From Candidatus Saccharimonas aalborgensis (GTDB lineage Bacteria > Patescibacteriota > Saccharimonadia > Saccharimonadales > Saccharimonadaceae): a stretch of 32,000 nucleotides of DNA. The stretch covers positions 60,001-92,000 of the forward strand of contig NC_021219.1 in NCBI RefSeq assembly GCF_000392435.1. Reading direction: 5' to 3'. Below are positions 1 to 25,793 of the stretch, one piece after another. The position numbers and the translations under genes are program-made. The number at the start of each line of letters is the position of its first letter. Position 1 is the first letter of the stretch. The notes beneath the pieces are model-generated. The model did not search any database and was not told where the DNA came from. It saw nothing but the letters and a program-made list of their open reading frames with translations.

Positions 1-132
1 GATGAAGCCGACACAGGTCAGTTCGGCTGTCGTCGGTCCGTAGACCGACAAGCGAGCTCGGGCACACGCCGGAGAGTCCGGGGTGACCCGGAAAACCACA
101 TACCAATTCTCCCAATGTCCTTCAGCCGCCAC
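1..132 (-). CDS. Partial GC-rich ORF running off the left window edge (first 44 codons VAAEGHWENWYVVFRVTPDSPACARARLSVYGPTTAELTCVGFI)
   Basis: GTG at 132-130 with GAGGTG 6 nt upstream and a TTGATA-17-TAATAT promoter further upstream. The frame stays open to position 1. Absent from the ORF track because it is truncated. Plus-strand frame 1 is also open here, so the strand is uncertain. Confidence 0.3.
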   Translation of the reverse strand, partial: MAAEGHWENWYVVFRVTPDSPACARARLSVYGPTTAELTCVGFI

Positions 133-185
133 GCGTATCACCTCTTTCGTAGGATCGAACTATTGTGTGGGGTTGATCAATTTCT

Positions 186-214
186 ATATTACAACTTTAT
201 TGACTATTTATCAA
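186..214 (-). promoter_or_regulatory. Sigma70-type promoter TTGATA-17 nt-TAATAT reading leftwards
   Basis: -35 is the reverse complement of 209-214 and -10 the reverse complement of 186-191, with a 17-nt spacer in AT-rich context. Confidence 0.5.
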
Positions 215-230
215 GTTTACAAAAAAACCT

Positions 231-346
231 GAATCTCAACCCTCCTCCGACAGACAGTTGGCCCTGATGGGCCAAGGCCCGCCAAGAGCGAAGGCTGATT
301 TAGTTAGCGGCGGGCCGGTTGTCTGGAGTGGGGAGAGGATGGGTTT
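231..346 (+). repeat. GC-rich structured repeat element, family B, copy 1
   Basis: Core cctcctccgacagacagttggccctgatgggccaaggcccgccaagagcgaaggctgatttagttagcggcgggccggttgtctggagtgggg is nearly identical to 12415-12537 and, reverse-complemented, to 3911-4018. Perfect hairpins ttggccc/gggccaa (258-275) and ggcccgcc/ggcgggcc (276-316). The ends aaccc..cctc and gagg..gggtt are complementary. Confidence 0.9.
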
Positions 347-373
347 GTGTCTCTCGTGCTACACTGGTACGTG

Positions 374-1402
374 ATGCAACTCGCTGATTTTCATTATGAT
401 ATTCCCGAAAAACTGATCGCGACCACGCCACCGACAGTACGCGGTGATGCGCGGCTGCTAGTTCTTGACCGCCAGAGCGGCACTGTTAGTGATCGACACT
501 ACCCAGATATCGTCGACTACCTCGGGCTTGGCGACGTGCTTATCATCAATGACACCAAAGTCATCAAGGCTCGATTGATAACAACCAAACAAACCGGTGG
601 CACACGCGAGCTTGTGCTTGTCGAGAAGCACGGTCGCAGTGACGACTGGCATACCCACAAGGTTATCTACCGACGCAAGTTAGCTGTTGGGGACAAACTC
701 TCTGTCGGAGCCGATACGCTGACGGTGGAGGAACTACTTGATGGTGGCATGGCAATCATCAAAAGTGAGCGTGACCTGCTACAAATCGCCGAAGAACACG
801 GCTCGGTGCCGCTGCCACCGTATATGCGGCGCGACGCAACGCCAGCAGATATCGAGCGATACCAGACGATATTTGCCCGTGAGCAGGGGTCGGTCGCCGC
901 TCCGACGGCAAGTCTCAATATGACAGAGGAGACCCTCTCACGACTCCGCGACAAAGGCATTGTCGTCGTCTATGCAACGCTGCATGTCGGCCTCGGTACG
1001 TTTCTGCCTATTCGCGTCGAAGATGTTACCGATCATCATATGCATAAGGAGTATTTTGAGATTCCCGCAGTCACTGTAAGCGCGATACGTGATGCCAAGG
1101 CAAAGGGTAAGCGAGTTGTCGCCCTCGGCACGACTGTGACACGCACACTTGAGTATGCTCACGAAGCCATCCTGGCCGGGCCGCCTAGAGACCTCTCGGG
1201 CGAAGCAGATATCTTTATGTATCCTGGCTATAGCTTTAAGATTATCGACGGCCTGATCACGAACTTTCATATGCCAGATAGCACCGTCCTCATGCTGACC
1301 GCGGCCTTTGCAGGATGGGATAAGCTCAAGCCTGCCTATGAACACGCTATCGACAAAAGCTATCGGTTCTTTAGCTACGGCGACAGTATGTTGATCCTGT
1401 AG
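374..1402 (+). CDS. queA: S-adenosylmethionine:tRNA ribosyltransferase-isomerase
   Basis: Track ORF 347-1402. N-terminus MQLADFHYDIPEKLIATTP and C-terminus FFSYGDSMLIL are typical of QueA. ATG 374 is preferred over GTG 347 because the family N-terminus begins there and TGcTACACT lies at 357-365. Confidence 0.93.
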   Translation: MQLADFHYDIPEKLIATTPPTVRGDARLLVLDRQSGTVSDRHYPDIVDYLGLGDVLIINDTKVIKARLITTKQTGGTRELVLVEKHGRSDDWHTHKVIYRRKLAVGDKLSVGADTLTVEELLDGGMAIIKSERDLLQIAEEHGSVPLPPYMRRDATPADIERYQTIFAREQGSVAAPTASLNMTEETLSRLRDKGIVVVYATLHVGLGTFLPIRVEDVTDHHMHKEYFEIPAVTVSAIRDAKAKGKRVVALGTTVTRTLEYAHEAILAGPPRDLSGEADIFMYPGYSFKIIDGLITNFHMPDSTVLMLTAAFAGWDKLKPAYEHAIDKSYRFFSYGDSMLIL

Positions 1403-1408
1403 CCCACA

Positions 1409-1443
1409 AAAAGCAAACTGCCCGCCCCCGAGGGAGCGAGCAG
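1409..1443 (-). terminator. Intrinsic terminator (minus strand) inside repeat A copy 1
   Basis: Minus-strand RNA CUGCUCGCUCC-CUCG-GGGGCGGGCAG gives an 11-bp stem with two G-U pairs, which would be C-A mismatches on the plus strand. It is followed by UUUGCUUUU. Confidence 0.75.
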
Positions 1444-1468
1444 TCGCTACAACCTCGAGGGACGGGCG
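1410..1468 (-). repeat. 59-bp direct repeat, family A, copy 1, immediately 3' of the membrane-protein gene
   Basis: aaagcaaactgcccgcccccgagggagcgagcagtcgctacaacctcgagggacgggcg matches 2133-2189 except for one substitution and a 2-nt indel. It starts directly after the stop codon at 1469. Confidence 0.92.
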
Positions 1469-2065
1469 CTAAGAAACCGAAACTGATACTACCTTCCGCC
1501 TCATAATGATGGTGATCGCCATCAACACGTCGCAGAGAAGGAGATGCAATGGCGCCAAGTAGAGGAACCACTCTGGCGAACCAACGGCAACGACATTGAG
1601 TGCCGCGGCTACTGAGCCAAGCCCCCACATCATCAATGGCTCGGACGACGGATCGCGCCAGGTCTTGATGAGGCTGAGCGTGATACCGATGGTATCGGCA
1701 ACGAGGATGCAGACGAGCGCCATCAGCGCCGAGCTCATCGCGAACCACAGCGTGATACTGGTGAGCGCGATGACGAGCGCAAGTGAGTTTGGCCAGTCAA
1801 GTCCTCCCTCTCCCCGACCGCGCGTCAGCGACAGGCAAAATATCGTGAGGTTGACCACTACGAACCAGCCAAAGACAAACAGGCTGTCGCGTGAGCCAAG
1901 GGCGAACTGAGAGCCGAAGATCACGAGCGCGGTCATCAGGAAGATGAACCACGTATAGCGATGGGGCTGCGCTTGACGCCGCCAAATGGCTTTGACGTAG
2001 CTGAGATCGCTGATCGAGATCAGGATCACGGCCAAAATGCCGATTGCTGCAAGCACGTGGCTCAC
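1469..2065 (-). CDS. Multi-pass membrane protein of unknown function (about 6 TM helices), moderately GC-rich
   Basis: Track ORF of 198 aa, hydrophobic throughout. AGGAGG lies 8 nt before the in-frame GTG at 2056, so the true start may be 2056. It has its own promoter at 2098-2126 and a terminator at 1409-1443. Confidence 0.7.
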   Translation of the reverse strand: MSHVLAAIGILAVILISISDLSYVKAIWRRQAQPHRYTWFIFLMTALVIFGSQFALGSRDSLFVFGWFVVVNLTIFCLSLTRGRGEGGLDWPNSLALVIALTSITLWFAMSSALMALVCILVADTIGITLSLIKTWRDPSSEPLMMWGLGSVAAALNVVAVGSPEWFLYLAPLHLLLCDVLMAITIIMRRKVVSVSVS

Positions 2066-2097
2066 CTCCTCTTTGTGAAAGATCGATTCTTTTTGTA

Positions 2098-2126
2098 TTT
2101 ATAACACTTCTGTAGATAATTTTCAA
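2098..2126 (-). promoter_or_regulatory. Sigma70-type promoter TTGAAA-17 nt-TATAAA for the membrane-protein gene
   Basis: -35 is the reverse complement of 2121-2126 and -10 the reverse complement of 2098-2103, in an AT-rich gap between repeat A copy 2 and the gene. Confidence 0.6.
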
Positions 2127-2132
2127 CCCATG

Positions 2133-2166
2133 AAAGCAAACTGCCCGCCCCCGAGGGAGCGAGCAG
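2133..2166 (-). terminator. Intrinsic terminator (minus strand) inside repeat A copy 2
   Basis: Same 11-bp G-U-containing stem as copy 1 (2141-2166), followed on the minus strand by UUUGCUUU. Confidence 0.75.
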
Positions 2167-2189
2167 TCGCTACGACCTGGGGACGGGCG
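2133..2189 (-). repeat. 57-bp direct repeat, family A, copy 2, immediately 3' of the wHTH gene
   Basis: aaagcaaactgcccgcccccgagggagcgagcagtcgctacgacctggggacgggcg lies 4 nt after the stop codon at 2194. Confidence 0.92.
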
Positions 2190-2193
2190 TGTT

Positions 2194-2544
2194 CTACGGC
2201 AAGCCGTAGAGGATGCGGGCGAACGGGCGGACGGCAGCGAAATGCTGCGCCACCTCACTGCCTAGGTCGGTGAGCTCCTGCCGGAACTCATCCGCGTTGT
2301 AGCGGACGAGGCCGAGTTCGTGGAGCTTGACAACCGCGTCGGTGATGTTGCCGCCGAGCTCGAAGTGACGCCACTTCGCCTCCTCGAACATCATGATGAG
2401 CTCGAGTCCGGGCTTGCGGCCCTCACGGGCCTCGAGCATGATCAGGAGGTACAGCACCGCGTGCCGCGGCACCTCCTTGAGTCGCTGGAGCGCCTCGAGG
2501 ACGCTCGCCGCGGGATTCTCCGGCTCTTTGTATTCATACTCCAT
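2194..2544 (-). CDS. Small GC-rich winged-helix-like DNA-binding protein (116 aa)
   Basis: Track ORF. GAGGTG lies 5 nt before the ATG. Nearly all third codon positions are G/C. The segment VLYLLIMLEAREGRKPGLELI...ITDAVVKLHELGLVRY looks like a PadR/MarR-type wHTH; this is recognition by eye only. Confidence 0.65.
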   Translation of the reverse strand: MEYEYKEPENPAASVLEALQRLKEVPRHAVLYLLIMLEAREGRKPGLELIMMFEEAKWRHFELGGNITDAVVKLHELGLVRYNADEFRQELTDLGSEVAQHFAAVRPFARILYGLP

Positions 2545-2583
2545 AGTGCACCTCGATAAAATCGAAGGGATGTGGACATATTC

Positions 2584-2612
2584 ATTATGTCATAGTTTAC
2601 ATATATTTGCAA
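2584..2612 (-). promoter_or_regulatory. Sigma70-type promoter TTGCAA-17 nt-CATAAT for the wHTH gene
   Basis: ttgcaa at 2607-2612 (a palindromic hexamer); -10 is the reverse complement of attatg at 2584-2589; 17-nt spacer. This leaves a leader of about 35 nt carrying the SD. Confidence 0.55.
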
Positions 2613-2649
2613 CTACTTCATTCACTTGACCTCAGTTGTGCTACAGTAA

Positions 2650-3903
<1,254 letters not shown>

Positions 3904-3910
3904 CTTGAGC

Positions 3911-4018
3911 CTCACCACCTCCCCACTCCGAACACCGGCCCGCCGCTAACTGACTAGCTTTCGCCTTGGCGGGCCTTGGCCCATCAGGGCCAACTGTCTG
4001 TCGGGGGAGGTGGTGATA
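3911..4018 (-). repeat. GC-rich structured repeat element, family B, copy 2 (inverted relative to copies 1 and 3)
   Basis: The reverse complement aligns to copy 1 across the core, with small indels in the large loop. Perfect 13-bp closing stem tcaccacctcccc (3913-3925) / ggggaggtggtga (4004-4016). It lies between the convergent stops of tgt (3903) and yhhQ (4029). Confidence 0.9.
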
Positions 4019-4028
4019 CGCTGATGAA

Positions 4029-4703
4029 TTAGTCAACCAAGTAGCGTGCCGGTGCTTCGAAGCTATCGAGTTTTTCGTGCTTCTTGATGTAGTGAATGAC
4101 ACGCATGGTGAGTGGTGACACCGCTATTTCGGTGACTATCTTGATACAAAAGACGGTGGCGATAAGCTGAACCATCGTATCGGCCGGCATCGTGCCGCCG
4201 AACGCGAGGAGCGAAAAGACTGTGGTATCAACGAGACTACCGACACCAGAACTGCCAACAAGACGCGCCCAGAGACGCTTGCCCTTTGTCTTAATCTTGA
4301 GCGTTACGAGGACGTAGCTATTGATCAATTCACCGATAAATATCGCGGCGATACTAGCTGCAACGATCCGCCATACTACTCCCAGGATGGCATCATACGA
4401 TGATTGATTTGTCCAGCTTACATCTGCCGGCAGCATACCGACTAACCAAAAGGTTACACTAGTCAAGAGAAGCGTCATGATGCCTACGTAGAGGAGTGAC
4501 CGCATCTTGCGATATCCATATACCTCTGTCACGATATCACCCACGATATACGCCAGCGGAAACAGTATGGTTCCCGCATCAAATACTAGTGGTCCAGCAT
4601 GCACCATCTTGACACTGGCAATATTGCTGACGATAAGCGTCATCACAAATAGTCCCGATAAGAGTTCATAGACATGGACATGTTTTTTGGCAAACAGAAA
4701 CAT
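4029..4703 (-). CDS. yhhQ: Queuosine-precursor transporter, YhhQ/VUT (DUF165) family
   Basis: Track ORF of 224 aa, a polytopic membrane protein. Contains the FPLAYIVGDIVTEVYGY motif typical of YhhQ. It is adjacent to tgt and queA. Confidence 0.85.
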   Translation of the reverse strand: MFLFAKKHVHVYELLSGLFVMTLIVSNIASVKMVHAGPLVFDAGTILFPLAYIVGDIVTEVYGYRKMRSLLYVGIMTLLLTSVTFWLVGMLPADVSWTNQSSYDAILGVVWRIVAASIAAIFIGELINSYVLVTLKIKTKGKRLWARLVGSSGVGSLVDTTVFSLLAFGGTMPADTMVQLIATVFCIKIVTEIAVSPLTMRVIHYIKKHEKLDSFEAPARYLVD

Positions 4704-4711
4704 GCTGACTA

Positions 4712-5446: not shown

Positions 5447-7969
5447 ATGCAAGCTGTAAATCACCTTATTTCTCAATTTGTCCCGGAATCATATAATCTC
5501 TCATTGATACTTGATCGAGCTAGCCATGAGGCCCACGGTCATGTCGTCATCTCAGGATCTTCAGTCAACGGTACTATCGCACTTCATGCCAAGGATATGG
5601 CCATCGACCATGTAATGCTTGATGGCCAACCAGCGTCACACTCCTTCGGTAAGGACGATGAGCTCACTATCGGCAGCTCTGCTCTCTCGCCGGGCAAGCA
5701 TGTCATCGAAATTGAGTACCACTTTACCATCACCGAACTCGCACATGGTATGTACGTATCGCGCTATAAAGAAAACGGTGTTGAGAAAGAGTTATTTGCC
5801 ACCCAACTTGAGAGTCACTACGCCCGTGAGGTACTGCCCTGCGTCGATGAACCAGAAGCCAAAGCTGTCTTTACGGTCGATATCACCACCGCACGTGGAT
5901 CAACAGTCCTTAGTAATATGCCGGCTACGCATTACGAACATAGCAATGAGGTGACCACAACATACTTCGAACCCTCTCCGCGTATGAGTAGCTACCTACT
6001 CGCTATCGCCGTCGGAGAGTTTCACAAGCTCAGCCGTCTCTCGACGACTGGCGTTGAGGTCAATATATGGGCAGTGCCGACTCAACCGGCTACCGCGCTT
6101 GAATACCCCCTTGAACAAGCAATCAAATGTATTGATTTTTATGATGACTACTTCGGTGTGCCCTACCCGCTTCCAAAAAGTGACCACCTCGCCCTCCCAG
6201 ATTTTGGAGGTGGTGCAGCCGCCATGGAAAACTGGGGACTAGTCACCTATCGTCAAGATTACTTGCTCGCTGATCCCAGCATGACTAGCGTCGAATCAAA
6301 GCAGATGATCGCCAAGACAATTGCTCATGAGATTAGCCACCAATGGTTTGGCAACCTCGTGACGATGAAGTGGTGGAATGACCTCTGGCTCAACGAGAGT
6401 TTTGCTAATGTGATGGAGTACATCGCACTTGATCATCTCTACCCCGAATGGCAGATGTGGCTGGATTGTTCCACCTACGAAAACGTCCTCGCGCTACGGC
6501 GCGACAGTATCGATGGTGTCCAGTCAGTCCAGATCGATGTCAATCATCCGAGCGAGATTCAGTCTATCTTTGACGGAGCGATCGTCTATGCAAAGGGTGG
6601 CCGCTTGATGCGCATGCTCCATGCGTACGTTGGTGAGGAGGCATTCCGCAGTGGACTTAAACTCTATTTTTCCAGGCATCAATACGCCAATACGACGGGA
6701 GACGACCTATGGAACGCACTTGCCGAAACCAGTGGCAAGGATGTCGTTGGCTTCATGCACACATGGATTAGCCAGCCAGGGTATCCGGTTGTCTCGGCCT
6801 CTCTGGCAGACGGTGAATTAACCCTCACCCAGCGACAGTTTTTTATTGGCCCACACCAGGCCTCAACTCGCCTGTGGCCAATCCCGCTTGGCGCCCAGAA
6901 TGAGTCGATTCCTCACACACTGAGCGAACCATCACTCACAATACCCTACTCGGATACGTCTCTACGGCTCAACCAGGATGATAGCGCTCACTTCATTACT
7001 CACTACGACAAGGGGTTATTTGATAAATTGTTGTCTGACGTGAGGAGTGGTAACCTATCAGTCTTAGGTCGGGCCCAACTGCTTCACGAGCAAACCCTGC
7101 TTGTACGGGGTGGTCTGCTCTCGAGCGACACATTGATTGACCTCCTCGAAGCCTATGTCAATGAAGACGATGAATACGTCTGGGATATGATGGCCGTAGC
7201 TATCGGTGAGTTAAAAAAGTTTGTCGACACGAATGAGGCTGCAGAGCATCAGTTACGGACGTTTGTCGGACGACTCGCACGTCAGCAGTATGAACAGCTC
7301 GGATGGCAAAAGAAACCGGATGAATCACTCACACGCACCAAACTTCGCACGACCATTATCAGCTGTATGCTCTATAGCGAGGATACTGAGGTCATAGCCG
7401 AGGCCATTCGTCAGTATCGCTCCTCGTCAATCGACCAGCTTGATCCCGAACTACGCGGCCTAATCATCTCGACTGTTGTTCGTCACGATCATCGCCCGGA
7501 CGATATCGATGCACTCATCCAGGACTATAGCGCAACCATCAATCCCGAGTTGCAACACGATATCTGCGGCGCCCTCACCTCATCGCGTGATCACGATACA
7601 CTACTGCGTTTGATCGGCCTCCTCAAAGATACAAAGGTGATCCGTCTCCAAGACACCGTCTCGTGGTTTGTATCGCTCCTAAGAAACCGCTTTAGCCGCC
7701 AAGAGGTGTGGGACTGGATGAGACGCGAATGGCCGTGGATCGGCGAGATGTACTTTAGCGAAAAAAGCTATGACTCATTCCCGAAGTACGCCGCAATGTG
7801 CCTCATGACAGCGTCACAACTCGATGAGTTTACAGCATTCTTTACCCCGATGCGCGATGACCCTTCGCTGACACGGGCCATCGATATGGGTATTGTTGAT
7901 CTCACTGCCCGCGTTGAGCTGATCGAAAAAGATGGACCAGCCGTCATCGCGAGACTAGCGCAACTCTAA
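5447..7969 (+). CDS. pepN: Aminopeptidase N (M1 family)
   Basis: Contains the GAMENWG exopeptidase motif (AAAMENWGLV) and the zinc motif HEISHQWFGNLVTMKWWNDLWLNESFA. Confidence 0.93.
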   Translation: MQAVNHLISQFVPESYNLSLILDRASHEAHGHVVISGSSVNGTIALHAKDMAIDHVMLDGQPASHSFGKDDELTIGSSALSPGKHVIEIEYHFTITELAHGMYVSRYKENGVEKELFATQLESHYAREVLPCVDEPEAKAVFTVDITTARGSTVLSNMPATHYEHSNEVTTTYFEPSPRMSSYLLAIAVGEFHKLSRLSTTGVEVNIWAVPTQPATALEYPLEQAIKCIDFYDDYFGVPYPLPKSDHLALPDFGGGAAAMENWGLVTYRQDYLLADPSMTSVESKQMIAKTIAHEISHQWFGNLVTMKWWNDLWLNESFANVMEYIALDHLYPEWQMWLDCSTYENVLALRRDSIDGVQSVQIDVNHPSEIQSIFDGAIVYAKGGRLMRMLHAYVGEEAFRSGLKLYFSRHQYANTTGDDLWNALAETSGKDVVGFMHTWISQPGYPVVSASLADGELTLTQRQFFIGPHQASTRLWPIPLGAQNESIPHTLSEPSLTIPYSDTSLRLNQDDSAHFITHYDKGLFDKLLSDVRSGNLSVLGRAQLLHEQTLLVRGGLLSSDTLIDLLEAYVNEDDEYVWDMMAVAIGELKKFVDTNEAAEHQLRTFVGRLARQQYEQLGWQKKPDESLTRTKLRTTIISCMLYSEDTEVIAEAIRQYRSSSIDQLDPELRGLIISTVVRHDHRPDDIDALIQDYSATINPELQHDICGALTSSRDHDTLLRLIGLLKDTKVIRLQDTVSWFVSLLRNRFSRQEVWDWMRREWPWIGEMYFSEKSYDSFPKYAAMCLMTASQLDEFTAFFTPMRDDPSLTRAIDMGIVDLTARVELIEKDGPAVIARLAQL

Positions 7970-8902
7970 GTATGTGACGACAGCGGGTGGTGTGCCGGTG
8001 GTAGAAATAACTCCTAGCCGCAGATCATGTCCCGGGTGATGAGCGGCATACACCTCTGCAGCAAAGGCCATTTGACGCTGCTTCCGCTTTGTAATCGCAG
8101 CAATTCCGTCTCCCGCTGTATCATTTTTGCGATGTTTCACCTCTGTAAAGTGCAGCGTATTTGCCTGCTTGCTAATGATATCAATTTCGCACCATTTCGT
8201 ACGCCAATTCCGTGCCACGATGGTATGACCGAGTGATTGTAGATACTCAGCCGCCACAGCCTCACTCGCCTGGCCAATTGAGCGAGTGGTGGTAGCCGGT
8301 AGGCTTTTCTCGCGCCTTTCTTTGGGAGCGTCGAATCGATAGGCCGCGAGTGGCGCAAAGCTCAACCGATGCAGCGGAGTTACCCCGAGCTTGTCTATGG
8401 CCGCTCGATGTGCCGCGACGCCATAGCCAGCATGACGACCGAATCCATACCCAGGGTAGACGCTATCTTGATCGGCCATGTAGCGATCGCGTGCCACCTT
8501 TGCAACGATCGAAGCAGCCGAGACACTCGGCACCAATTTGTCGGCTTTTGGCAGGACGGTCACATACTGACCCTTTTTTGTTCCAGCGAGGAAATTAACA
8601 GTGCCGTCGATGATGATTTCGTGGTACGGTACCGTGATTTGCTCGACAGCCCGCCTGGTCGCTAGTACAAGCGCCTGGCTGAGGCCGATGTTGTCGAGCT
8701 CTGTCGCCGTGACCCATCCCAGCGCTACTGCTGCAGCCTGCTCGATGATAATCGGCGCTAGCGCTTCTCGTTGTTTCTTGGTCAACTGTTTGCTATCAGC
8801 TAGTCCCTCTATCTCAGTGCCACCAAGCACCACCGCACCAACCACCAGTGGTCCTGCCCAGGGACCACGTCCGACTTCATCGATGCCAAGTATCATGCAC
8901 AT
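7955..8902 (-). CDS. rnhB: RNase HII fused to a YraN (UPF0102) endonuclease-like domain
   Basis: Track ORF 7955-9001. GIDEVGRGPWAGPLVVGAVVL and DSKQLTKKQRE indicate RNase HII. The C-terminal AAEYLQSLGHTIVARNWRTKWCEIDIISK...LHFTEVKHR matches the YraN pattern. The start is probably ATG 8902 or 8896, because 9001-9031 is the rplS terminator hairpin. Confidence 0.85.
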   Translation of the reverse strand: MCMILGIDEVGRGPWAGPLVVGAVVLGGTEIEGLADSKQLTKKQREALAPIIIEQAAAVALGWVTATELDNIGLSQALVLATRRAVEQITVPYHEIIIDGTVNFLAGTKKGQYVTVLPKADKLVPSVSAASIVAKVARDRYMADQDSVYPGYGFGRHAGYGVAAHRAAIDKLGVTPLHRLSFAPLAAYRFDAPKERREKSLPATTTRSIGQASEAVAAEYLQSLGHTIVARNWRTKWCEIDIISKQANTLHFTEVKHRKNDTAGDGIAAITKRKQRQMAFAAEVYAAHHPGHDLRLGVISTTGTPPAVVTYLELR

Positions 8903-9000
8903 AAGTATAGCGTATTCCTCATATTTGACTTTTAGTGATATTTTGACAGATGCCTCCAGACACGGGTCATTATCATAGGAAAGCGGTATCTCTCCATGCA

Positions 9001-9031
9001 AAGAACTCTCGGGTTTTGACCGAGAGTTCTT
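9001..9031 (-). terminator. Hairpin terminator downstream of rplS
   Basis: Perfect 12-bp inverted repeat aagaactctcgg / ccgagagttctt with a 7-nt loop, 21 nt after the rplS stop. The minus-strand 3' arm runs into UUCUUU. Confidence 0.65.
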
Positions 9032-9576: not shown

Positions 9577-9698
9577 CTTCTACTCGCTTATCATTTAGTA
9601 TTACAATTCGACTATCAACTATAGCATACTTCTGGACATTTTAAAAGAGGCTAGACGCCTCAATCGGTAGGGCGGGGACAAGGAGAGAGCGGTGGTGG

Positions 9699-9730
9699 TG
9701 CAGGGAGTCCTCTTTCGAGAGCTCCCTGCA
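9699..9730 (-). terminator. GC-rich hairpin with GAAA loop 3' of the 67-aa ORF
   Basis: Minus-strand UGCAGGGAG-CUCUC-GAAA-GAGGA-CUCCCUGCA has 9 bp plus 4 inner pairs and no U-tract. A weaker gaggc/gcctc hairpin followed by UUUU lies at 9661-9643. Confidence 0.5.
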
Positions 9731-9750
9731 CCGTGCGGCCGAGTCAGGGC

Positions 9751-9954: not shown

Positions 9955-10017
9955 GGATAGCTCCTAATCTCACTCTGCCCACGATGGGCAAACACCACAG
10001 CCGGAACGTCCCGACGA

Positions 10018-10071
10018 GTGCTGAGTGGCAACGATAGTCCAACTCGTTAGCCTATCATTGCCCCTCAGCAC
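10018..10071 (-). promoter_or_regulatory. Long leader hairpin in the 5' UTR of the 67-aa ORF
   Basis: 20-nt arms at 10018-10037 and 10052-10071 with a 14-nt loop. On the minus-strand RNA 18 Watson-Crick pairs, one G-U and one mismatch form. A second 5-bp hairpin lies at 9976-9990. Confidence 0.55.
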
Positions 10072-10124
10072 ATACTCTCTCCTTGTCAAAGATCGTGTGA
10101 GGTTATCTCACAACGAACAAATAC

Positions 10125-10153
10125 ATTATAGCACATTATGCATTAATTTGCAA
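10125..10153 (-). promoter_or_regulatory. Near-consensus promoter TTGCAA-17 nt-TGcTATAAT reading into cassette 1
   Basis: ttgcaa at 10148-10153; -10 is the reverse complement of attata at 10125-10130; 17-nt spacer ending in tgc (extended -10). It sits in AT-rich sequence just outside the right inverted repeat. Confidence 0.65.
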
Positions 10154-10177: not shown

Positions 10178-10675
10178 CTAACGGCCAAATAATCCGCCGA
10201 GAAACCCATTCTTTTTTTTCGTCCAGCCTGATTTCTCAAGTAGTTCAAAGAGTGGCTTCTTGATCTCGCTCGTATCGAAACTATACGAGTAAGTCATTCC
10301 ACCGATCGATACACTACTCTGCGGTTGTTTCGCATGCCCAAGGCCAAATCCCATTTCTTTACCTATCTTATGGCCTTTGAATCCTCCCATTTCGCCTCCA
10401 AATGATATGGTACCGTTTGTGAGAAGCGAAAAACCACTAGATTTACTTGTCTGCGTGTCCTGAGAAGTGTACGTATGCGTCAGTTCATCGAGCATCACTA
10501 CAAGCTTAAATGTCTTTTCGACATTGTTGGCGGCAAGTGGAGCCGCCCAAATAGCGTCGAGATATTTCCATTCGGCAACAATCTTGTTTCCCTGGACGGA
10601 ATAGGAGAATGGTCTTTCTGGCAGATTTAGTTGGTTAATTGCTGAAATTATTTGTTCGAGAGATAGTGGCTGCAT
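10178..10675 (-). CDS. Hypothetical protein (165 aa) with a Gly-rich central segment
   Basis: Track ORF lying 6 nt downstream of the preceding gene. No family recognised. Confidence 0.65.
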   Translation of the reverse strand: MQPLSLEQIISAINQLNLPERPFSYSVQGNKIVAEWKYLDAIWAAPLAANNVEKTFKLVVMLDELTHTYTSQDTQTSKSSGFSLLTNGTISFGGEMGGFKGHKIGKEMGFGLGHAKQPQSSVSIGGMTYSYSFDTSEIKKPLFELLEKSGWTKKKNGFLGGLFGR

Positions 10676-10681
10676 TGCAGA

Positions 10682-11164
10682 TTACTCTATCTTTGCTTCT
10701 AATGAGCTGTTGCTCGAGCGAAAATTCATCACGCGCCAATTATCACCGTTTTTTTCGAGGATGACACGGATGTACTTCGTACCCGATGATGTATCGACCG
10801 TATAGACGATGATCGCCTTTTGCGAAGAACCTGCGGTGGTTTCTACCGCACGTGCAGTCACCTTCTCGTCTCCTTGTAATGCGGGAGAGACCCGTTTGAT
10901 AACTGCATCGAGATCATCTCTCGATGTCGCACCTCGGAAGCCCTCGCTCGTTAACGCATAGGCTGCCTCGGTGTTTGCCGACTGTACATCGTTGACAAAC
11001 TCGTCACTTACCTTCTTTGGGGAATCTGTCATATTCATGACGACAATAAATATCACTCCTCCCACAATCAATAGTCCAAAAATCACGCTGATAAGTACTA
11101 CGAGCCAACGAGGAACTTTGCCTGAAGCATAGTTATTTTTTAAGTGTGTTGTTGGTGTTTTCAT
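10682..11164 (-). CDS. Membrane-anchored hypothetical protein (160 aa), NTF2/DUF4878-like ectodomain by eye
   Basis: N-terminal TM helix WLVVLISVIFGLLIVGGVIFIVV followed by a soluble domain. TAGATT lies 6 nt before the ATG. Confidence 0.65.
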   Translation of the reverse strand: MKTPTTHLKNNYASGKVPRWLVVLISVIFGLLIVGGVIFIVVMNMTDSPKKVSDEFVNDVQSANTEAAYALTSEGFRGATSRDDLDAVIKRVSPALQGDEKVTARAVETTAGSSQKAIIVYTVDTSSGTKYIRVILEKNGDNWRVMNFRSSNSSLEAKIE

Positions 11165-11277: not shown

Positions 11278-12411
11278 ATGGATTACAACCAACTCGCTCT
11301 CGATCTCCATGCGCGCTATGGCGGCAAAATTACCACTCAGCTCCGCGATACGAGCGAGCTTGATCGTGCAAAGCTCAGTGCGTATTACAGCCCTGGCGTA
11401 GGAGCAGTTAGTCAGGCGATAGCCGCTGACCCCTCGTCACTTTCCACCTATACCTGGACAAACAATCTCGTCGCTGTGATTTCTGATGGATCTGCCATCC
11501 TCGGCCTCGGGGACCTCGGTCCCAAAGCAGCCATGCCCGTCATGGAAGGCAAAGCCCTGCTGTTTAAGCGCTTTGCCGACATCGATAGCGTACCGATCGT
11601 GCTCGACGTGCACACAGCCGATGAAATCGTCGCTACTGTCAAAGCCATTGCGCCCAGTTTTGGCGCCATCAACCTCGAGGATATCGCCGCGCCAAAGTGT
11701 TTTGAGGTCGAGGAGCGACTCAAAGCTGCTCTCGACATCCCCGTCTTTCATGATGACCAACATGGTACAGCGGTGGTGACACTCGCCGGACTTATCAACG
11801 CAGCAACCGTCACTCATCGTTCACTCGTGGATTCAAAGATAGTTACTATCGGAGCAGGTGCAGCTGGCACAGCCATCATTAAGCTCTTACACCGCTATGG
11901 TTGCCGACAGATTGTAGCAATCGACAGCAAGGGTACTATCGGCGACTATCGCAATGATCTCAACGATGAAAAAAAGGCCCTTCTCGGGTATGTCGACCGT
12001 TCGGCTCACGGCTCACTCAGCGATGCGCTCAAGGAAGCCGATATCTTCATCGGCGTCAGTAAGGGCGGCCTCCTGACATCTGATCTCGTCTCACTCATGG
12101 CACCTAACCCCATCGTCTTCGCACTAGCTAATCCAACACCTGAAATTATGCCCGACGAAGCAAAAGTAGCTGGCGTCGCCGTGATAGCAACCGGCCGAAG
12201 TGATTTTCCCAACCAAGTCAACAATGCCATTGCCTTCCCCGGTATCTTTCGGGGTGCACTTGATCACGGCATCAAAAAGATTACTGACGAACATAAACTC
12301 GCCGCTGCTAAAGCTATCGCCGGATTGGTAGAAACACCTACCCCCGATACAGTTATTCCCAGCGTCTTTGATGAGCGGCTTGTGCCAACGATCGCTGCCG
12401 TCATTACTTAA
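11278..12411 (+). CDS. NAD(P)-dependent malic enzyme (short form)
   Basis: Contains YSPGVG, AVISDGSAILGLGDLGPKAAMPVMEGKALLFKRFADID and the Rossmann motif IGAGAAG. Confidence 0.9.
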   Translation: MDYNQLALDLHARYGGKITTQLRDTSELDRAKLSAYYSPGVGAVSQAIAADPSSLSTYTWTNNLVAVISDGSAILGLGDLGPKAAMPVMEGKALLFKRFADIDSVPIVLDVHTADEIVATVKAIAPSFGAINLEDIAAPKCFEVEERLKAALDIPVFHDDQHGTAVVTLAGLINAATVTHRSLVDSKIVTIGAGAAGTAIIKLLHRYGCRQIVAIDSKGTIGDYRNDLNDEKKALLGYVDRSAHGSLSDALKEADIFIGVSKGGLLTSDLVSLMAPNPIVFALANPTPEIMPDEAKVAGVAVIATGRSDFPNQVNNAIAFPGIFRGALDHGIKKITDEHKLAAAKAIAGLVETPTPDTVIPSVFDERLVPTIAAVIT

Positions 12412-12414
12412 CCT

Positions 12415-12537
12415 GAGTCTCAAACCCCTCCTCCGACAGACAGTTGGCCCTGATGGGCCAAGGCCCGCCAAGAGCGAAGGCTGATTTAGTTAGCGGCGGG
12501 CCGGTTGTGTGGAGTGAGAGAGTATGAGACTTGAGAC
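12415..12537 (+). repeat. GC-rich structured repeat element, family B, copy 3
   Basis: The core is nearly identical to copy 1 (gtctg to gtgtg and gggg to gaga changes at the 3' side). The ends gtctcaa (12417-12423) and ttgagac (12531-12537) are complementary. It fills the gap between convergent stops at 12411 and 12537. Confidence 0.9.
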
Positions 12538-20458: not shown

Positions 20459-20550
20459 TCCTTTTTATGCTATTTGCTTCATTTACTGAAGCACTACTCT
20501 TAGTATACTCTCACACGCGGGCTATACTGTGAAAATCTTCACTTTAACGA

Positions 20551-21444: not shown

Positions 21445-21468
21445 GATTCCCCCTTTTCTTTATCTGTA

Positions 21469-22926: not shown

Positions 22927-22927
22927 C

Positions 22928-23353
22928 TTAGATAGCTCCCAAATCTTTCAAGGCTTGTTTGTAGGCGCTGAGCGAGCGCAGGGCTATATCGGGCGTAACA
23001 TGCACGTCCGTTTCATGAGCCAGTTGGTTGCGAATCTTGTGTGCACCCCAGACGTGATTGGCATTTGTCCAGATGTTTTGAGCAGATTTCATTCGTTCGC
23101 CCATTGTCTCGCCCTTAATATGTCGCTCTTTGAGCGCGAGATCCAGCAATTTATCTGCATTGAGTATCGCCATTGGGTAACTTTGCGGGTTTTCTCGGCT
23201 CAAGCTATTCTCGATCTCAAGCCATTTCGTTTGGTACTTCTGCGAGTCGAGGCTCGGGACGCCCCGTCTCGACATCGTCAGGTAGACGACCAAAATAATG
23301 GCAACAATCAAAACGCTCACAAGGAGAAAGAAACTAGCGGGATTTTGAGTCAT
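22928..23353 (-). CDS. Membrane-anchored alpha-helical protein with a DUF4145/HEPN-like RNxxxH motif, embedded in gatCAB
   Basis: N-terminal TM helix FFLLVSVLIVAIILVVYL. C-terminal NADKLLDLALKE...GETMGERM...AHKIRNQLAHE. Its ATG overlaps the gatA stop (ATGA at 23350-23353) and its stop is 1 nt before the gatB ATG. Confidence 0.65.
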   Translation of the reverse strand: MTQNPASFFLLVSVLIVAIILVVYLTMSRRGVPSLDSQKYQTKWLEIENSLSRENPQSYPMAILNADKLLDLALKERHIKGETMGERMKSAQNIWTNANHVWGAHKIRNQLAHETDVHVTPDIALRSLSAYKQALKDLGAI

Positions 23354-24753
23354 TCTTTGGCCTCCATACTTCCAGCAAGTGCCAGCATCGCTGCATCGCT
23401 CTTGGCCGGTCCGATAAGTTGTATCCCGATTGGCAAGCCGGCTTTTGAGACGCCGGCCGGCACGCTCAGTGCTGGCAAGCCAGCAAGACTTGCCGGGACG
23501 GTCATGACATCGGCTAGATACATTTTTACGGGGTCGTCTGTGTTTTCGCCGATACCAAATGCGGGTGTCGGTGCTGTCGGCAAAATCAGGAAATCATACT
23601 GAGAAAACAATGTATCGAATGCTTGGATCAACAACGTCCTAGCTTTTTGCGCCTGCAAATAGTAGGCATCAAAGAAGCCGCTGCTCAACACGTAGCTACC
23701 GATCATGATACGGCGCTTGTTTTCAGTAACAAATCCTTCATCGCGCGAACGTCCGTAGAGTTCTGCCAGTGTTTTTACGTCGTGCGCACGGTACCCGTAG
23801 CGTATCCCGTCAAACCGCGCGAGATTGCTACTCACCTCTGCTGGAATGATGATGTAGTACATAGCGAGGGTGTATTTGAGGAGTGGCATCTCGACTTCCT
23901 CGACGACATGTCCCGCCGCACGCAGACGCTCGACATATTCGAGCGTACAACCGCGAACCTCTTGATCGACATCATCTGACATCGCATCTTTGACAAGACC
24001 AATACGTAGCTTCGGCTGTACAAACGTTGTCGGCTCAAAGAAATCAGGTAGTGTCGTCATGTCCTTTTCGTCGCGGCCAGCCATAATGCTTGTCACGAGC
24101 GCCACATCCTCAGCGCATTTCGCGAAACATCCCATGGTATCCGTGCTACTCGCCATCGCTACTACTCCATAGCGGCTACTGGTACCATAGGTTGGCTTGT
24201 AACCATATACGCCGTTGAAGCTTGCAGGCTGCCGGATAGAGCCACCCGTATCACTACCGAGGGCAAATGGTACGATATCGAGTGCGGTCACTACTGCCGA
24301 TCCGCCCGAACTACCACCAGCAACTTTTGTCTGATCGACGGCATTTTTTGTCACGCCGTAGGCAGAGTTTTCGGTCGAAGCGCCATGAGCGAAAGCGTCG
24401 AGGTTACTCTTGCCGATACAGATGGCACCCGCCGCCTCAAGTTTGTCGACAACCGTTGCCTGGAGCGGAGCCTGGAAGTTCTCGAGTATCTTTACAGCAG
24501 CGGTCGTCGGTGCGCCAAACGCAAGATAGTTGTCTTTGACGACAAATGGTACACCCGCGAGTGGACCGACAGATTCACCGCTAGCGATACGTGTATCTAT
24601 CTCATCTGCTCGTTTGAGAGCACGATCAGCCGTCAGGCTGAGAAGCGCATGATAACCTTTGGCTTCCTTTGCCTTAGCGAGAGCTGTCTCAACTTCTTGG
24701 CGGGCGGTTGTGTCACCATTTACAATACGCGCAACTCGGTCAGTTATCTTCAT
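23350..24753 (-). CDS. gatA: Glu-tRNA(Gln) amidotransferase subunit A
   Basis: Amidase signature GGSSGGSAVVTA...GSDTGGSIRQPA. Confidence 0.95.
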   Translation of the reverse strand: MKITDRVARIVNGDTTARQEVETALAKAKEAKGYHALLSLTADRALKRADEIDTRIASGESVGPLAGVPFVVKDNYLAFGAPTTAAVKILENFQAPLQATVVDKLEAAGAICIGKSNLDAFAHGASTENSAYGVTKNAVDQTKVAGGSSGGSAVVTALDIVPFALGSDTGGSIRQPASFNGVYGYKPTYGTSSRYGVVAMASSTDTMGCFAKCAEDVALVTSIMAGRDEKDMTTLPDFFEPTTFVQPKLRIGLVKDAMSDDVDQEVRGCTLEYVERLRAAGHVVEEVEMPLLKYTLAMYYIIIPAEVSSNLARFDGIRYGYRAHDVKTLAELYGRSRDEGFVTENKRRIMIGSYVLSSGFFDAYYLQAQKARTLLIQAFDTLFSQYDFLILPTAPTPAFGIGENTDDPVKMYLADVMTVPASLAGLPALSVPAGVSKAGLPIGIQLIGPAKSDAAMLALAGSMEAKE

Positions 24754-24755
24754 GA

Positions 24756-25046
24756 CTACAATACCTGCGGCACTTTCACACTATGATCGGCTTGCTCAGG
24801 AGCAAGCGCCAGCAGCGCCTCGCGGTCAGCAGCACCTTGACGCACGACATCATCGCGCCATACATTTTCGAGTCCCGATACTTGGTAGGTTGGTTCGACA
24901 TTCGACGTATCGAGCTCACTGAGCTGGTGGACATAGTTGAGAATATTCTCCAGATCGACCTGGAGTGCCGCTAGTTCGTCATCGCTGAGTTGCAAGTTAC
25001 TTAACTGTGCGAGATGCCGCACGTCGTCGGTGGTGATAGTGCTCAT
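24756..25046 (-). CDS. gatC: Asp/Glu-tRNA amidotransferase subunit C
   Basis: 96 aa, VRHLAQLSNLQLSDDELAALQVDLENILNYVHQL, directly upstream of gatA. Confidence 0.9.
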   Translation of the reverse strand: MSTITTDDVRHLAQLSNLQLSDDELAALQVDLENILNYVHQLSELDTSNVEPTYQVSGLENVWRDDVVRQGAADREALLALAPEQADHSVKVPQVL

Positions 25047-25092
25047 TTGTACGTATTATAGCGCATCTATCGTTGTTTTGAAAAGCAAAGGA

Positions 25093-25121
25093 TTGACTAA
25101 ATAAATCATGTGTGTTATAAT
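25093..25121 (+). promoter_or_regulatory. Consensus promoter TTGACT-17 nt-TGtTATAAT reading into cassette 2
   Basis: ttgact at 25093-25098, tataat at 25116-25121, 17-nt spacer ending in tgt (extended -10). AT-rich, divergent from gatC. Confidence 0.7.
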
Positions 25122-25194
25122 AAGATCAATGTCTTAGGAATACATCCTTTCGTTGACAGCAACTTTAACAAGCTAGGAATACGCCTTCATTCCT

Positions 25195-25240
25195 GAATCG
25201 CACCGACTCATCAAACATACTTGATGGATGAGTGCGATTC
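25195..25240 (+). promoter_or_regulatory. Leader hairpin in the 5' UTR of the 130-aa ORF
   Basis: gaatcgcac (25195-25203) pairs with gtgcgattc (25232-25240), and actcatc with gatgagt inside; about 16 bp with a 2-nt bulge. Confidence 0.5.
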
Positions 25241-25278
25241 GGGAAGCTCAGTACCGACGCAGAAGTGGAGCCCATATC

Positions 25279-25671
25279 ATGAACTTCACTCGTATCGGCC
25301 GTCGTAACCGTGGCCGCACCGGTGCGGCGCTGCTCGTCATCGTCGGGCTCATCGCCGTCATCTGGTACATGGTGGCGGCGAACACCACCCACACGACGAC
25401 CATCACGGTCTGCAACAAGGAGCGGGTCGCGGTCAAGAACTCCGGTGAGTACCGGATCTACGCCGCCGAGGGGACGTTCGTCATGGCGGACTCCCTGCTC
25501 GGGACGGTCCGCTACGACACGGCGGACGCCTACGCGAAGGTGAAGCCCAAGACGACCTACGACGTCGTCTACAAGGGCTGGCGCATCCCCTTCTTCAGTT
25601 CGTTCCCCAACTTGCTCGAGCTCAAGGAGTCGGCCACGCAGCACCCGGAGGCCTGCGCCAACTTCGGCTGA
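25279..25671 (+). CDS. GC-rich single-pass membrane protein of unknown function (130 aa)
   Basis: Track ORF 25228-25671. ATG 25279 has GGAG 8 nt upstream. The basic N-terminus RIGRRNRGR precedes the TM helix AALLVIVGLIAVIWYMVAA. All but about 8 codons end in G/C. C-terminal motif YKGWRIPFFSSFPN. Confidence 0.65.
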   Translation: MNFTRIGRRNRGRTGAALLVIVGLIAVIWYMVAANTTHTTTITVCNKERVAVKNSGEYRIYAAEGTFVMADSLLGTVRYDTADAYAKVKPKTTYDVVYKGWRIPFFSSFPNLLELKESATQHPEACANFG

Positions 25672-25684
25672 CCGTCGGCAACGC

Positions 25685-25721
25685 GTGCGGGCTGGCGGGA
25701 CCTTGTCCCACCAGCCCGCAC
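25685..25721 (+). terminator. 17-bp GC-rich hairpin 3' of the 130-aa ORF
   Basis: gtgcgggctggcgggac (25685-25701) pairs with gtcccaccagcccgcac (25705-25721) with one C-A mismatch. There is no U-tract, as in high-GC organisms. Confidence 0.5.
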
Positions 25722-25793
25722 CGGCAATTCCTAGCTTGTTATCTCTCAGCTCCCACAGGGGAGTAATTTTATTGTCTTTATTTAGTTGTATGG

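Follow-up and report, generated by a model that had tools for sequence, protein, structure and literature searches.

A 32,000-nucleotide stretch of Candidatus Saccharimonas aalborgensis (contig NC_021219.1, positions 60,001 to 92,000; hereafter the window) carries four small GC-rich genes, called c1 to c4 here, in the spaces between housekeeping genes. The window has a GC content of 0.51, and Pfam scans identify its large open reading frames (ORFs) as ordinary housekeeping genes: queA, tgt, a Vut_1 transporter, a GmrSD_C nuclease, pepN, an RNase HII–UPF0102 fusion and rplS, together with malic enzyme, a PilB-type ATPase, SpoU, dnaE, gatCAB, a glgB-like enzyme, an Exo_endo_phos nuclease and uvrB. 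The small genes, each with its own promoter and 3' hairpin forming a cassette, are flanked by queA and tgt (c1 and c2), by the genes for ribosomal protein L19 and malic enzyme (c3), and by gatC and the glgB-like gene (c4). Their G+C fraction at third codon positions (GC3) is 0.74 in c1, 0.87 in c2, 0.96 in c3 and 0.93 in c4, about 4, 6, 8 and 7 standard deviations outside the 26 other genes of the window (range 0.34–0.59, mean 0.51, standard deviation 0.06). For c4 the value is 0.88 if the start is taken at 25228; the assemblies call its 130-amino-acid (aa) protein from 25279. The fractions at first and second positions (GC1 about 0.60 and GC2 about 0.42, pooled over the four genes) are native-like. 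The steps in composition are sharp and fall at the ends of the ORFs, and the neighbouring promoters remain AT-rich.

A preliminary description of this DNA had singled out these four genes and a partial ORF at the left edge, and their coordinates and composition are confirmed. The four are islands rather than the norm, as it had supposed: they are GC3 outliers in the window, and GC3-saturated ORFs are rare in 80 loci from sister genomes. The automated island scans of those loci were noisy, with antisense ORFs and conserved GC-richer stretches in native genes among the hits, and were used solely to judge rarity. The features of the cassettes are as follows.

1–132, minus strand: 5' part of a 79-aa gene that leads a three-gene unit (79, 73 and 83 aa; L002 8413–9126) with GC3 of 0.62, 0.74 and 0.68; Shine–Dalgarno (SD) site AAGAGGTGA before its GTG start
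186–214, minus strand: promoter-like site TTGATA-17-TAATAT of the three-gene unit, from a consensus scan
1403–2655: block inserted between queA and tgt, judged by sister loci of other genera, with two cassettes and a new leaderless tgt promoter
1410–1468, minus strand: hairpin/terminator module, copy 1, 3' of c1 and also facing the 3' end of queA; 13-pair stem and T-run
1469–2065, minus strand: c1, multi-pass membrane protein of 198 aa with GC3 0.74 and strong conservation
2098–2126, minus strand: c1 promoter-like site TTGAAA-17-TATAAA, followed by the SD site GAGGAGGTG; invariant among strains
2133–2190, minus strand: hairpin/terminator module, copy 2, 3' of c2; found in S. aalborgensis loci only
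2194–2544, minus strand: c2, orphan protein of 116 aa, all-helical, with GC3 0.87, hypervariable from strain to strain
2584–2612, minus strand: c2 promoter-like site TTGCAA-17-CATAAT, within a 111-bp AT-rich divergent region shared with tgt
9643–9661, minus strand: small hairpin GAGGC-gtcta-GCCTC with TTTT, the probable true terminator of the c3 transcript, read from the sequence and paired in the predicted fold
9677–9689, minus strand: 3' arm of the c3 closing inverted repeat, CUCUCUCCUUGUC in RNA, paired in the minimum free energy (MFE) and centroid structures
9697–9732, minus strand: GC-rich hairpin 3' of c3, without a U-tract; a different hairpin occupies the same place in strain L021
9751–9954, minus strand: c3, 67-aa orphan protein, GC3 0.96; homologues (76–81%) come from the same species complex
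9955–10118, minus strand: structured c3 leader (fold z −3.8) with a long hairpin at 10018–10071, an SD-like site with a two-codon upstream ORF, and the c3 SD site AGGAG
10075–10087, minus strand: 5' arm of the c3 closing inverted repeat, GACAAGGAGAGAG, at about +31 to +43 of the predicted transcript
10125–10153, minus strand: c3 promoter-like site TTGCAA-17-TATAAT with TG extension, from a consensus scan
25093–25121, plus strand: c4 promoter-like site TTGACT-17-TATAAT, 11 of 12 matches, with TG extension, from a consensus scan
25166–25180, plus strand: 5' arm of the c4 closing inverted repeat, TAACAAGCTAGGAAT, from an inverted-repeat search and the fold
25190–25245, plus strand: c4 leader hairpin with 25-nucleotide (nt) arms, from the predicted fold
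25279–25671, plus strand: c4, 130-aa membrane-anchored protein of phrog_301/DUF1523 by profile matches, GC3 0.93
25685–25721, plus strand: GC-rich hairpin 3' of c4, without a U-tract, from a hairpin search
25727–25741, plus strand: 3' arm of the c4 closing inverted repeat, identical in allele L115
25749–25774, plus strand: canonical intrinsic terminator of c4, CTCCC-acag-GGGAG with a T-run, from a consensus scan

The five sigma70-type promoters quoted in the preliminary description are present, four of them recovered by consensus scan and TTGAAA-17-TATAAA by direct reading, and an SD site precedes each of the four genes as well as the partial ORF. This ORF, offered tentatively at the time, keeps its SD site, its promoter and its raised GC content but has to be corrected to the first gene of a three-gene unit that lies to the left of the window. 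A hairpin does follow each complete gene, although the large hairpins of c3 and c4 lack a U-tract and small canonical terminators lie 3' of them. The hairpin module shared by c1 and c2 is 98% identical between its copies (1410–1455 and 2133–2178), with similarity extending to about 59 nt, and it was found as described, as were the perfect inverted repeats of c3 and c4.

In about a dozen native operon-first genes a TATAAT-like box ends some 5–11 nt 5' of the start codon and no SD site is seen, which agrees with the earlier remark that such genes look leaderless. Among them are the Vut1, GmrSD, pepN, malic enzyme, FHA, SpoU, dnaE, gatC, glgB-like and uvrB genes, and starts led by a −10 box are found, for example, where such boxes lie upstream of 4703, 5416, 5447, 11278, 13673, 15374, 25046, 25832 and 30419. 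This implies that leaderless mRNAs would be widespread in S. aalborgensis. SD sites in the window occur at the cassettes and at internal genes of operons, and the contrast between leaderless native genes and SD-led accessory genes is a useful marker in annotating candidate phyla radiation (CPR) genomes. Pfam scans of the window gave no recombinase, transposase or phage domain, in line with the earlier statement that no integrase, transposase or phage gene is nearby; no tRNA or known Rfam RNA was found in the window, and none in the cassette leaders.

Such a composition could in principle come from an assembly chimera or from contamination by high-GC reads, for which nothing speaks beyond the composition itself. 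Identical cassette junctions recur across many wastewater assemblies made independently, and closed genomes of 1.01, 1.006 and 0.94 Mb are among them. The sequence collection has exact matches to the c2 protein in 101 index blocks and to the c3 protein in 93, closed genomes of about 1 Mb again included. Since the same junctions recur in so many independent assemblies, closed genomes among them, an artefact of assembly is for practical purposes excluded.

The preliminary description had proposed a search for empty sites in sister genomes, and such a site was found between queA and tgt. Scanning metagenome contigs with TGT gave the 80 sister loci, in which TGT is 51–81% identical, and the closer ones keep the order nusA-queA-tgt-Vut1-GmrSD-pepN-RNaseHII-rplS. 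In L026, L028, L029, L034, L035, L045, L049 and L052 only 6–48 nt separate the queA stop codon from the tgt ATG. Because queA and tgt adjoin in the sister genera, the block at 1403–2655 is, on this comparison, extra DNA that split the queA–tgt pair. It holds, in order, the hairpin module, c1, a promoter, the module again, c2 and the AT-rich divergent promoter region of 111 bp. The ancestral spacer being so short, the AT-rich promoters would have come with the added DNA or arisen later, rather than being intergenic DNA that was there beforehand. Relatives of c1, c2, c3 or the left-hand unit are encoded in none of the 80 sister loci.

The same gap carries other cargo, none of it GC-rich, in three further loci (L027 5428–6001, L032 5122–6001 and L033 4761–6001), and this different cargo marks the queA–tgt spacer as an insertion hotspot. 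In L033 it includes ORFs of 219 and 130 aa and in L032 an ORF of 141 aa, all of normal composition. The neighbourhood varies in another way as well: queA is absent beside an intact tgt in L036, L042–L044 and L046–L048 and partial in L039 and L087, and in these relatives nusA and tgt are separated by some 800 nt of different sequence, which in L036 includes a membrane-like ORF of about 137 aa.

The two genes of the inserted block are quite different from each other. The c1 product belongs to a family of uncharacterised membrane proteins of about 195 aa (1,428 cluster representatives at E ≤ 1e-3, 22–65% identity) and is 27–31% identical to matches in Burkholderia/Paraburkholderia replicons; it has no Pfam or NCBIfam family and no match in phages or viral contigs. 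In some strains c1 (1469–2065 in the window; L004 6492–6752) is truncated, with products of 52, 84–90 and 155 aa, and it may be dispensable in some populations despite a ratio of nonsynonymous to synonymous divergence (dN/dS) of 0.02–0.04 between intact alleles. For c2 there are four homologues, all from the S. aalborgensis complex, and its amino acid identity between strains is 77–82%, compared to 97–99% for the flanking genes. The AlphaFold2 (AF2) model of c2 is too poor to speak of a function (predicted local distance difference test score, pLDDT, 48), and searches with c2 gave neither a PDB sequence match nor a credible Pfam match, even at E 10.

The cassettes are found at the same loci and with the same GC3 throughout the S. 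aalborgensis complex (about 93–96% nucleotide identity). Synonymous divergence (dS) is 0.28 for c3 and 0.46–0.53 for c2, against 0.05–0.36 in flanking genes, so that cassette values are about those of the flanks or up to twice as high. This comparable divergence points to vertical descent since the strains split, and by this measure the cassettes are old, fixed insertions that predate the species complex, not fresh captures. The dN/dS of c1 (0.02–0.04) indicates strong purifying selection; the ratio is 0.27–0.28 for c2 and 0.64 for c3, with most housekeeping genes at 0.03–0.08 and the FHA gene at 0.20. Variation is patchy: in c2 it affects the middle, in c3 the 3' end and the hairpin, and in c4 about the first 40 codons, and the sequence around these patches is identical, including promoters, leaders and repeat arms. 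For example, in strain L021 the c3 leader, which has no Rfam match, is about 99% conserved, and the 3' arm of the c3 repeat is identical although the interior sequence has diverged. The two c4 alleles (82% aa identity) differ only in the N-terminal cytoplasmic and transmembrane segment (window 25279–25400; L115 2457–2580), and this looks like a segmental replacement, as the rest of the gene, the 3' untranslated region (UTR) and the flanks are 100% identical. Genes c2 and c3 and the N-terminus of c4 are fast-evolving, mosaic and strain-variable, as would be expected of genes for surface functions or for interaction with a host or with phages.

Alone among the four, c4 has a clear affiliation: on profile evidence it is a member of a phage ‘secreted protein’ family (phrog_301/DUF1523). 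Its residues 17–120 align with positions 18–129 of the 130 in phrog_301 (E 6.4e-16), and the C-terminal part only matches Pfam DUF1523 at 23.7 bits, the cut-off being 23. The AF2 model (pLDDT 70) shows a transmembrane helix at residues 11–34 and then a beta-barrel like the oligonucleotide/oligosaccharide-binding (OB) fold; the profile match thus covers most of the length, and the protein has an N-terminal membrane anchor with a small beta domain. The best fold matches of the model are uncharacterised phage proteins of the same size (E 1e-7 to 1e-5), while the PDB gives only weak OB folds. A tblastn search with c4 reached 435 phage records, 286 of them Vibrio phages; among the matches listed, at 27–43% identity, most are actinophages. 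The c4 alignment brought up no viral contig, and a scan of the genome collection with its very specific peptide patterns returned only a metagenome-assembled genome of S. aalborgensis.

Closer relatives of c4 (54–82% identity) lie on other mid-GC contigs, one of which, L023, is tied to the Saccharimonadales by a neighbouring gene. The family members on five such contigs have a GC3 of 0.71–0.86, compared to a GC content of 0.36–0.50 in their flanks, and their neighbours, where visible (L023, L024 and L107), differ from those in the window. All five genes have a leader and a promoter-like site of the form TTGAC[AT] or TTGATA, 16–17 nt, TATAA[TG], and a hairpin lies 3' of the gene in the four loci that reach past the stop codon. 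The layout of promoter, leader, ORF and hairpin therefore recurs for every member of the c4 family found elsewhere, and it recurs for an SPFH gene of sister genera.

This SPFH/Band 7 gene (662–672 aa; L026 1610–3598 and L027 208–2226, from genomes with a GC content of 0.51–0.53) has a GC3 of 0.85–0.90 and a native-like GC2 of 0.40–0.41, with an AT-rich consensus promoter 5' of it and a GC hairpin 3' of it. Here a large gene of other genera shows the compositional pattern of the cassettes. A separate observation concerns the surroundings of c4 homologues. In the Arthrobacter phage ArV1, an actinophage, the DUF1523 homologue (L112 341–1113) has on one side a small gene, itself preceded by an endodeoxyribonuclease gene, and on the other a NUDIX hydrolase gene; on the Saccharimonadales contig L023 (178–2154) exonuclease III and a NUDIX hydrolase come after the c4 homologue. 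The likeness may be a coincidence or a remnant of a shared context.

The origin of the high GC3 can be approached through codon choice. Within four-fold families, the choice between C- and G-ending codons correlates with that of the native genome in c2, c3 and c4 taken together (r 0.77), in c1 (r 0.91), in the other c4-family genes (r 0.82) and in the SPFH genes (r 0.73–0.75). The correlation with actinophage genes is −0.35 to 0.49, against a reference of about 1,000 codons from four phages. Leucine CTC far exceeds CTG in the cassettes, as it does in native genes. Amino acid composition was considered as a donor signal for c4 and dropped, as the actinophage homologues have similar GC1 and GC2 (with a GC3 of 0.68–0.89).

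These results bear directly on the idea, raised in the preliminary description, that high-GC DNA was captured repeatedly from an actinobacterial host. In this account DNA of the host or its phages was taken up by competence and inserted without a recombinase, and the GC3 is the un-ameliorated signature of the donor. A GC3 of 0.87–0.96 is what a donor of 66–72% GC would give, the listed c4 phage matches are mostly actinophages, and their homologues share GC1 and GC2 with c4 at a GC3 of 0.68–0.89. The genome, guessed earlier to be that of a Saccharibacteria-type epibiont, is indeed of the epibiont type; natural competence is reported for Saccharibacteria, epibionts of Actinobacteria (PMC10633639), and c1 and c2 are an insertion. 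However, a search of 5.8 billion proteins found no homologue of c2 or c3 outside the S. aalborgensis complex, and hence none in actinobacteria. The c4 protein is 27–43% identical to actinophage proteins compared with 54–82% to proteins of other mid-GC contigs, and the codon dialect is native, with CTC above CTG for leucine and an r of −0.35 with actinophage genes. The insertions appear older than the species complex, and AT-rich promoters lie within the inserted DNA, where a raw host fragment would not have supplied them. The preliminary description had itself held that homologues confined to related genomes, at the same loci and with the same composition, would speak against capture, and this is the situation of c2 and c3. 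Its actinobacterial donor is therefore not upheld, either by homology or by codon choice, and capture of this kind is now an unlikely explanation. What stands of its foreign capture by a recombinase-independent route is that c1 and c2 are inserted with no recombinase nearby; repeated and recent capture from the host does not.

A second explanation is that the genes are resident, whether native or of an origin long lost, and that their third positions were pushed to G and C by a local force, either GC-biased gene conversion at recombination hotspots fed by natural transformation or gene-specific selection for GC-rich, structured mRNA; a high-GC donor would then be superfluous. The native pooled GC1 and GC2 and the native codon dialect fit this. 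The patches of mosaic variation between strains, with conserved sequence on both sides, coincide exactly with c2, c3 and c4; divergent members of the c4 family retain the GC3 excess; the SPFH gene combines its high GC3 with a native-like GC2; and the ORFs of c2 and c4 fold better than shuffled sequences. Such a force does not account for the c1 and c2 insertion, which is missing from sister genera, nor for steps in composition that are sharp at the ORF ends beside AT-rich promoters, nor for c1, which is GC3-rich yet not variable. To our knowledge, a shift from 0.5 to 0.96 far exceeds the effects of biased gene conversion reported in bacteria. This explanation, too, is unlikely. Whatever its cause, the GC3 saturation is likely to be maintained, not fading, on three indirect lines of evidence: the excess spans the c4 family down to 54% protein identity and goes together with a native codon dialect and native-like GC1 and GC2, the last of which does not discriminate in the case of c4.

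Two of the cassettes have a further, predicted property at the RNA level. Perfect inverted repeats bracket c3 (13 nt; 9677–9689 and 10075–10087) and c4 (15 nt; 25166–25180 and 25727–25741). The 32 kb have no other long-range perfect repeat that measures 13 nt or more, and none of 500 dinucleotide shuffles reaches the lengths of these two. The predicted transcript includes both arms, of which the 5' one begins 31–38 nt past the predicted start and the 3' one falls between the large GC hairpin without a U-tract and the small canonical terminator, and the arms are paired in both the MFE and the centroid structures. Compared with dinucleotide shuffles, the predicted transcripts fold with z scores of −8.75 (c3), −10.6 (c4), −4.1 (c2) and −3.4 (c1), and two native control transcripts give +0.46 and −0.70. 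The UTR elements supply most of the folding excess, although the ORFs of c2 and c4 also beat their shuffles (z −3.8 and −2.6). The c4 homologues of L023 and L106 have a helix between the 5' and 3' UTRs of wholly different sequence, at a similar position and distance from the promoter. No closing helix was seen in c1, c2, the left-hand unit or the SPFH genes, so the feature is specific to c3 and the c4 family. If these predictions are true, the c3 and c4-family mRNAs would be rare cases of bacterial 5'–3' mRNA pairing outside toxin–antitoxin systems. As a detail of c3, the 5' arm region (10067–10087, minus strand) contains an SD-like AAGGAG followed 6 nt on by the mini-ORF AUG UGC UGA, and the 3' arm is anti-SD-like (CUCCUU).

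Inverted repeats of this kind could be the termini of a miniature inverted-repeat transposable element (MITE), of which c3 and c4 would be relics with a passenger ORF. The perfect terminal repeats of 13 and 15 nt bound units of 411 and 576 bp, and the arms are constant where the interior has diverged; c1 and c2 have no such repeats. On the other hand, there is no target-site duplication of 2–12 bp, no second copy of an arm or other long-range pair in the window, which was the extent of the search for multiple copies, and no transposase. The promoters lie outside the repeats, and the arms in the c4 family differ completely at the same distance from the promoter. Since the arms differ in sequence and keep their architecture, a function in pairing is favoured over a transposase site, and a MITE origin is very improbable.

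Another possibility is that c3 and c4 are addiction or toxin modules. Type I toxin mRNAs have been documented with a 5'–3' long-distance interaction (PMC6733600), and in hok/Sok or aapA/IsoA such a lock is released by 3' processing. The c3 and c4 transcripts resemble these mRNAs in being monocistronic, structured and, by prediction, closed end to end and extremely stable, with a strong constitutive-type promoter and a small protein product. In addition, the anti-SD-like 3' arm of c3 pairs with the SD-like AAGGAG, and c4 has an N-terminal transmembrane helix. Type I toxin systems differ, however, in having an antisense RNA and a short hydrophobic product. Within the c3 and c4 cassettes the opposite strand showed no promoter in consensus scans, non-consensus ones being beyond the reach of such scans. 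Neither protein is a hydrophobic toxin of less than 60 aa: c4 has 130 aa with a folded OB-like domain, and c3 has 67 aa with no hydrophobic helix. The true SD sites of both genes lie outside the closing helix, and PADLOC gave no match for any cassette protein. Overall, a toxin module is decidedly improbable, if somewhat less so than a transposon relic.

The system that the cassettes resemble most in layout is the phage moron, an independent transcription unit added to a phage or prophage genome, a concept that goes back to Hendrix and Juhala (reviewed in PMC3594210). Like morons, the cassettes each come with a promoter and a terminator, deviate in GC, are inserted between conserved genes and code for small proteins that are often membrane-bound or secreted; c4 even belongs to a phage protein family. 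All four genes are independent transcription units by their predicted promoters and hairpins or terminators, their GC3 of 0.74–0.96 is unlike the 0.34–0.59 of their neighbours, and c1 and c2 are extra DNA in comparison with related genomes. Unlike morons, which reside in phages or prophages, the cassettes are chromosomal, lie between housekeeping genes with no phage or recombinase domain in the window, and are fixed and vertically inherited. The definition of a moron also does not include the inverted repeats that would close the mRNAs of c3 and c4. The undescribed class of mini-cassette suggested in the preliminary description is therefore mostly covered by the moron concept, except for these repeats.

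Two other known kinds of element are less alike. In the framework of Lawrence and Ochman, horizontally acquired islets are recognised by a deviating composition that later ameliorates. The cassettes are like islets in their GC3 deviation, their absence from sister genera and their orphan or patchy distribution. They differ in having no tRNA, integrase or direct-repeat boundaries, the sole direct repeat being the 46–59-nt hairpin module that flanks c1, and no donor lineage can be named, as c2 and c3 are confined to the complex and c1 and c4 have only distant relatives. Moreover, the deviation is limited to the ORFs, follows the c4 family across genomes and shows a native dialect without amelioration of GC3. 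Integron cassettes, or attC clusters without an integrase, recall c1 and c2 as serial small ORFs with unrelated cargo, each with a hairpin repeat. Here, in contrast, every cassette has its own promoter in place of an integrase and attI with a common promoter, there is no integrase in the window, and there are only two or three module copies. A search for attC cores (RYYYAAC / GTTRRRY) after the four genes found none on either strand.

The explanation that fits best, though it is held tentatively, is that the cassettes are lineage-specific accessory genes that were acquired horizontally long ago as moron-like, self-contained units and have been kept GC-rich. The units would have entered the S. 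aalborgensis lineage by horizontal transfer and lodged in short spacers of a conserved housekeeping gene order, probably by DNA uptake and illegitimate or short-homology recombination. Each has the architecture of a phage moron, with its own strong sigma70-type promoter, SD-bearing leader, ORF and hairpin or terminator, and would presumably be expressed from that promoter. The likeliest source is a mobile or phage gene pool circulating among the Saccharimonadales, not direct and recent uptake from actinobacteria; among the transfers detected in Patescibacteria, those within the Patescibacteria predominate (PMC12455944). The genes are fixed across the species complex and have been passed on vertically since its diversification. 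The saturation with G- and C-ending codons, using the native C/G preference, accompanies c4-family genes in at least six mid-GC genomes. GC-rich codons and UTR hairpins may yield compact, long-lived mRNAs whose translation is controlled or delayed, and the 5'–3' closing helix would make the c3 and c4 mRNAs more compact still.

Several findings weigh against this combined account of moron-like acquisition and maintained GC3. Of the cassettes, only c1 and c2 and the left-hand unit have a demonstrated empty site. The searches brought up neither a donor nor a vector, viral contigs gave no matches for any of c1 to c4, and there are no prophage remnants or recombinase near the cassettes. Neither c2 nor c3 has a family assignment; c2 matches no phage, plasmid or viral contig and c3 no phage or viral contig (plasmids were not searched with c3). 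The promoters, transcript ends and folds are predictions, the closing helix is not seen at the c4-family loci L024 and L107, and the actinophage codon reference is as small as stated above. In a count of changes from G or C to A or T against the reverse, three alleles suggested equilibrium, and a fourth put most of the changes on the unrootable branch leading to the window and left four on well-polarised branches. Finally, the gene for ribosomal protein L19 has an ordinary GC3 of 0.57, so any codon selection would have to be specific to particular genes.

A bolder alternative is that the cassettes are an undescribed portable expression unit of the Saccharimonadales. It would consist of a consensus promoter and a GC3-saturated ORF between UTR hairpins, with a 5'–3' helix that closes the whole mRNA and co-varies in sequence between genomes, and the GC3 would be selected for the sake of the RNA rather than being the footprint of a donor. 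This is a doubtful proposition at present. If true, the messages from such units would be exceptionally stable or would be stored, for instance for use in the epibiont's host-free or attachment stage.

The significance of moron-like acquisition lies in the nature of these genomes. The genomes of Saccharibacteria and of the CPR are tiny and highly syntenic, and for this reason their few lineage-specific genes are the best candidates for roles in attachment, host range and the interplay with phages. In S. aalborgensis such accessory genes would arrive and persist as complete units with predicted strong promoters, and one of these arrivals splits the conserved queA–tgt operon. A foreign-looking composition that is kept for a long time in a native codon dialect is awkward for the rule that a deviation in GC means recent transfer from an identifiable donor. 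The closed mRNAs also offer a testable handle on post-transcriptional control in an uncultivated phylum.

Beyond the cassettes, other parts of the window vary between strains. Next to c3 lie two adjoining orphan genes of 165 and 160 aa (10178–11164, minus strand) with a GC content of 0.44–0.46, which is below average, and no family matches. They are missing from strains L021 and L022, which have about 290 bp of other sequence instead, and their ORFs fold better than shuffles (z −3.7 and −2.4). With this variable pair beside c3, the gap between rplS and the malic enzyme gene is a variable hotspot with both low-GC and high-GC inserts. A GC-rich repeat of 91–120 nt is present in three copies that are 90–99% identical (226–345, plus; 3905–4025, inverted; 12410–12530, plus) and its fold, at −56 to −64 kcal/mol, is a strong hairpin with branches. 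Of the three copies, two lie between convergent genes (tgt/Vut1 and malic enzyme/FHA) and one just upstream of queA. The repeat is found in loci of the S. aalborgensis complex and is absent from the 80 sister loci, and because of this restriction it looks like a repetitive extragenic palindrome or MITE-like element of the lineage. Lastly, the RNase HII (PF01351) and UPF0102/YraN-like (PF02021) domains are joined in a single ORF at 7955–9001 on the minus strand.

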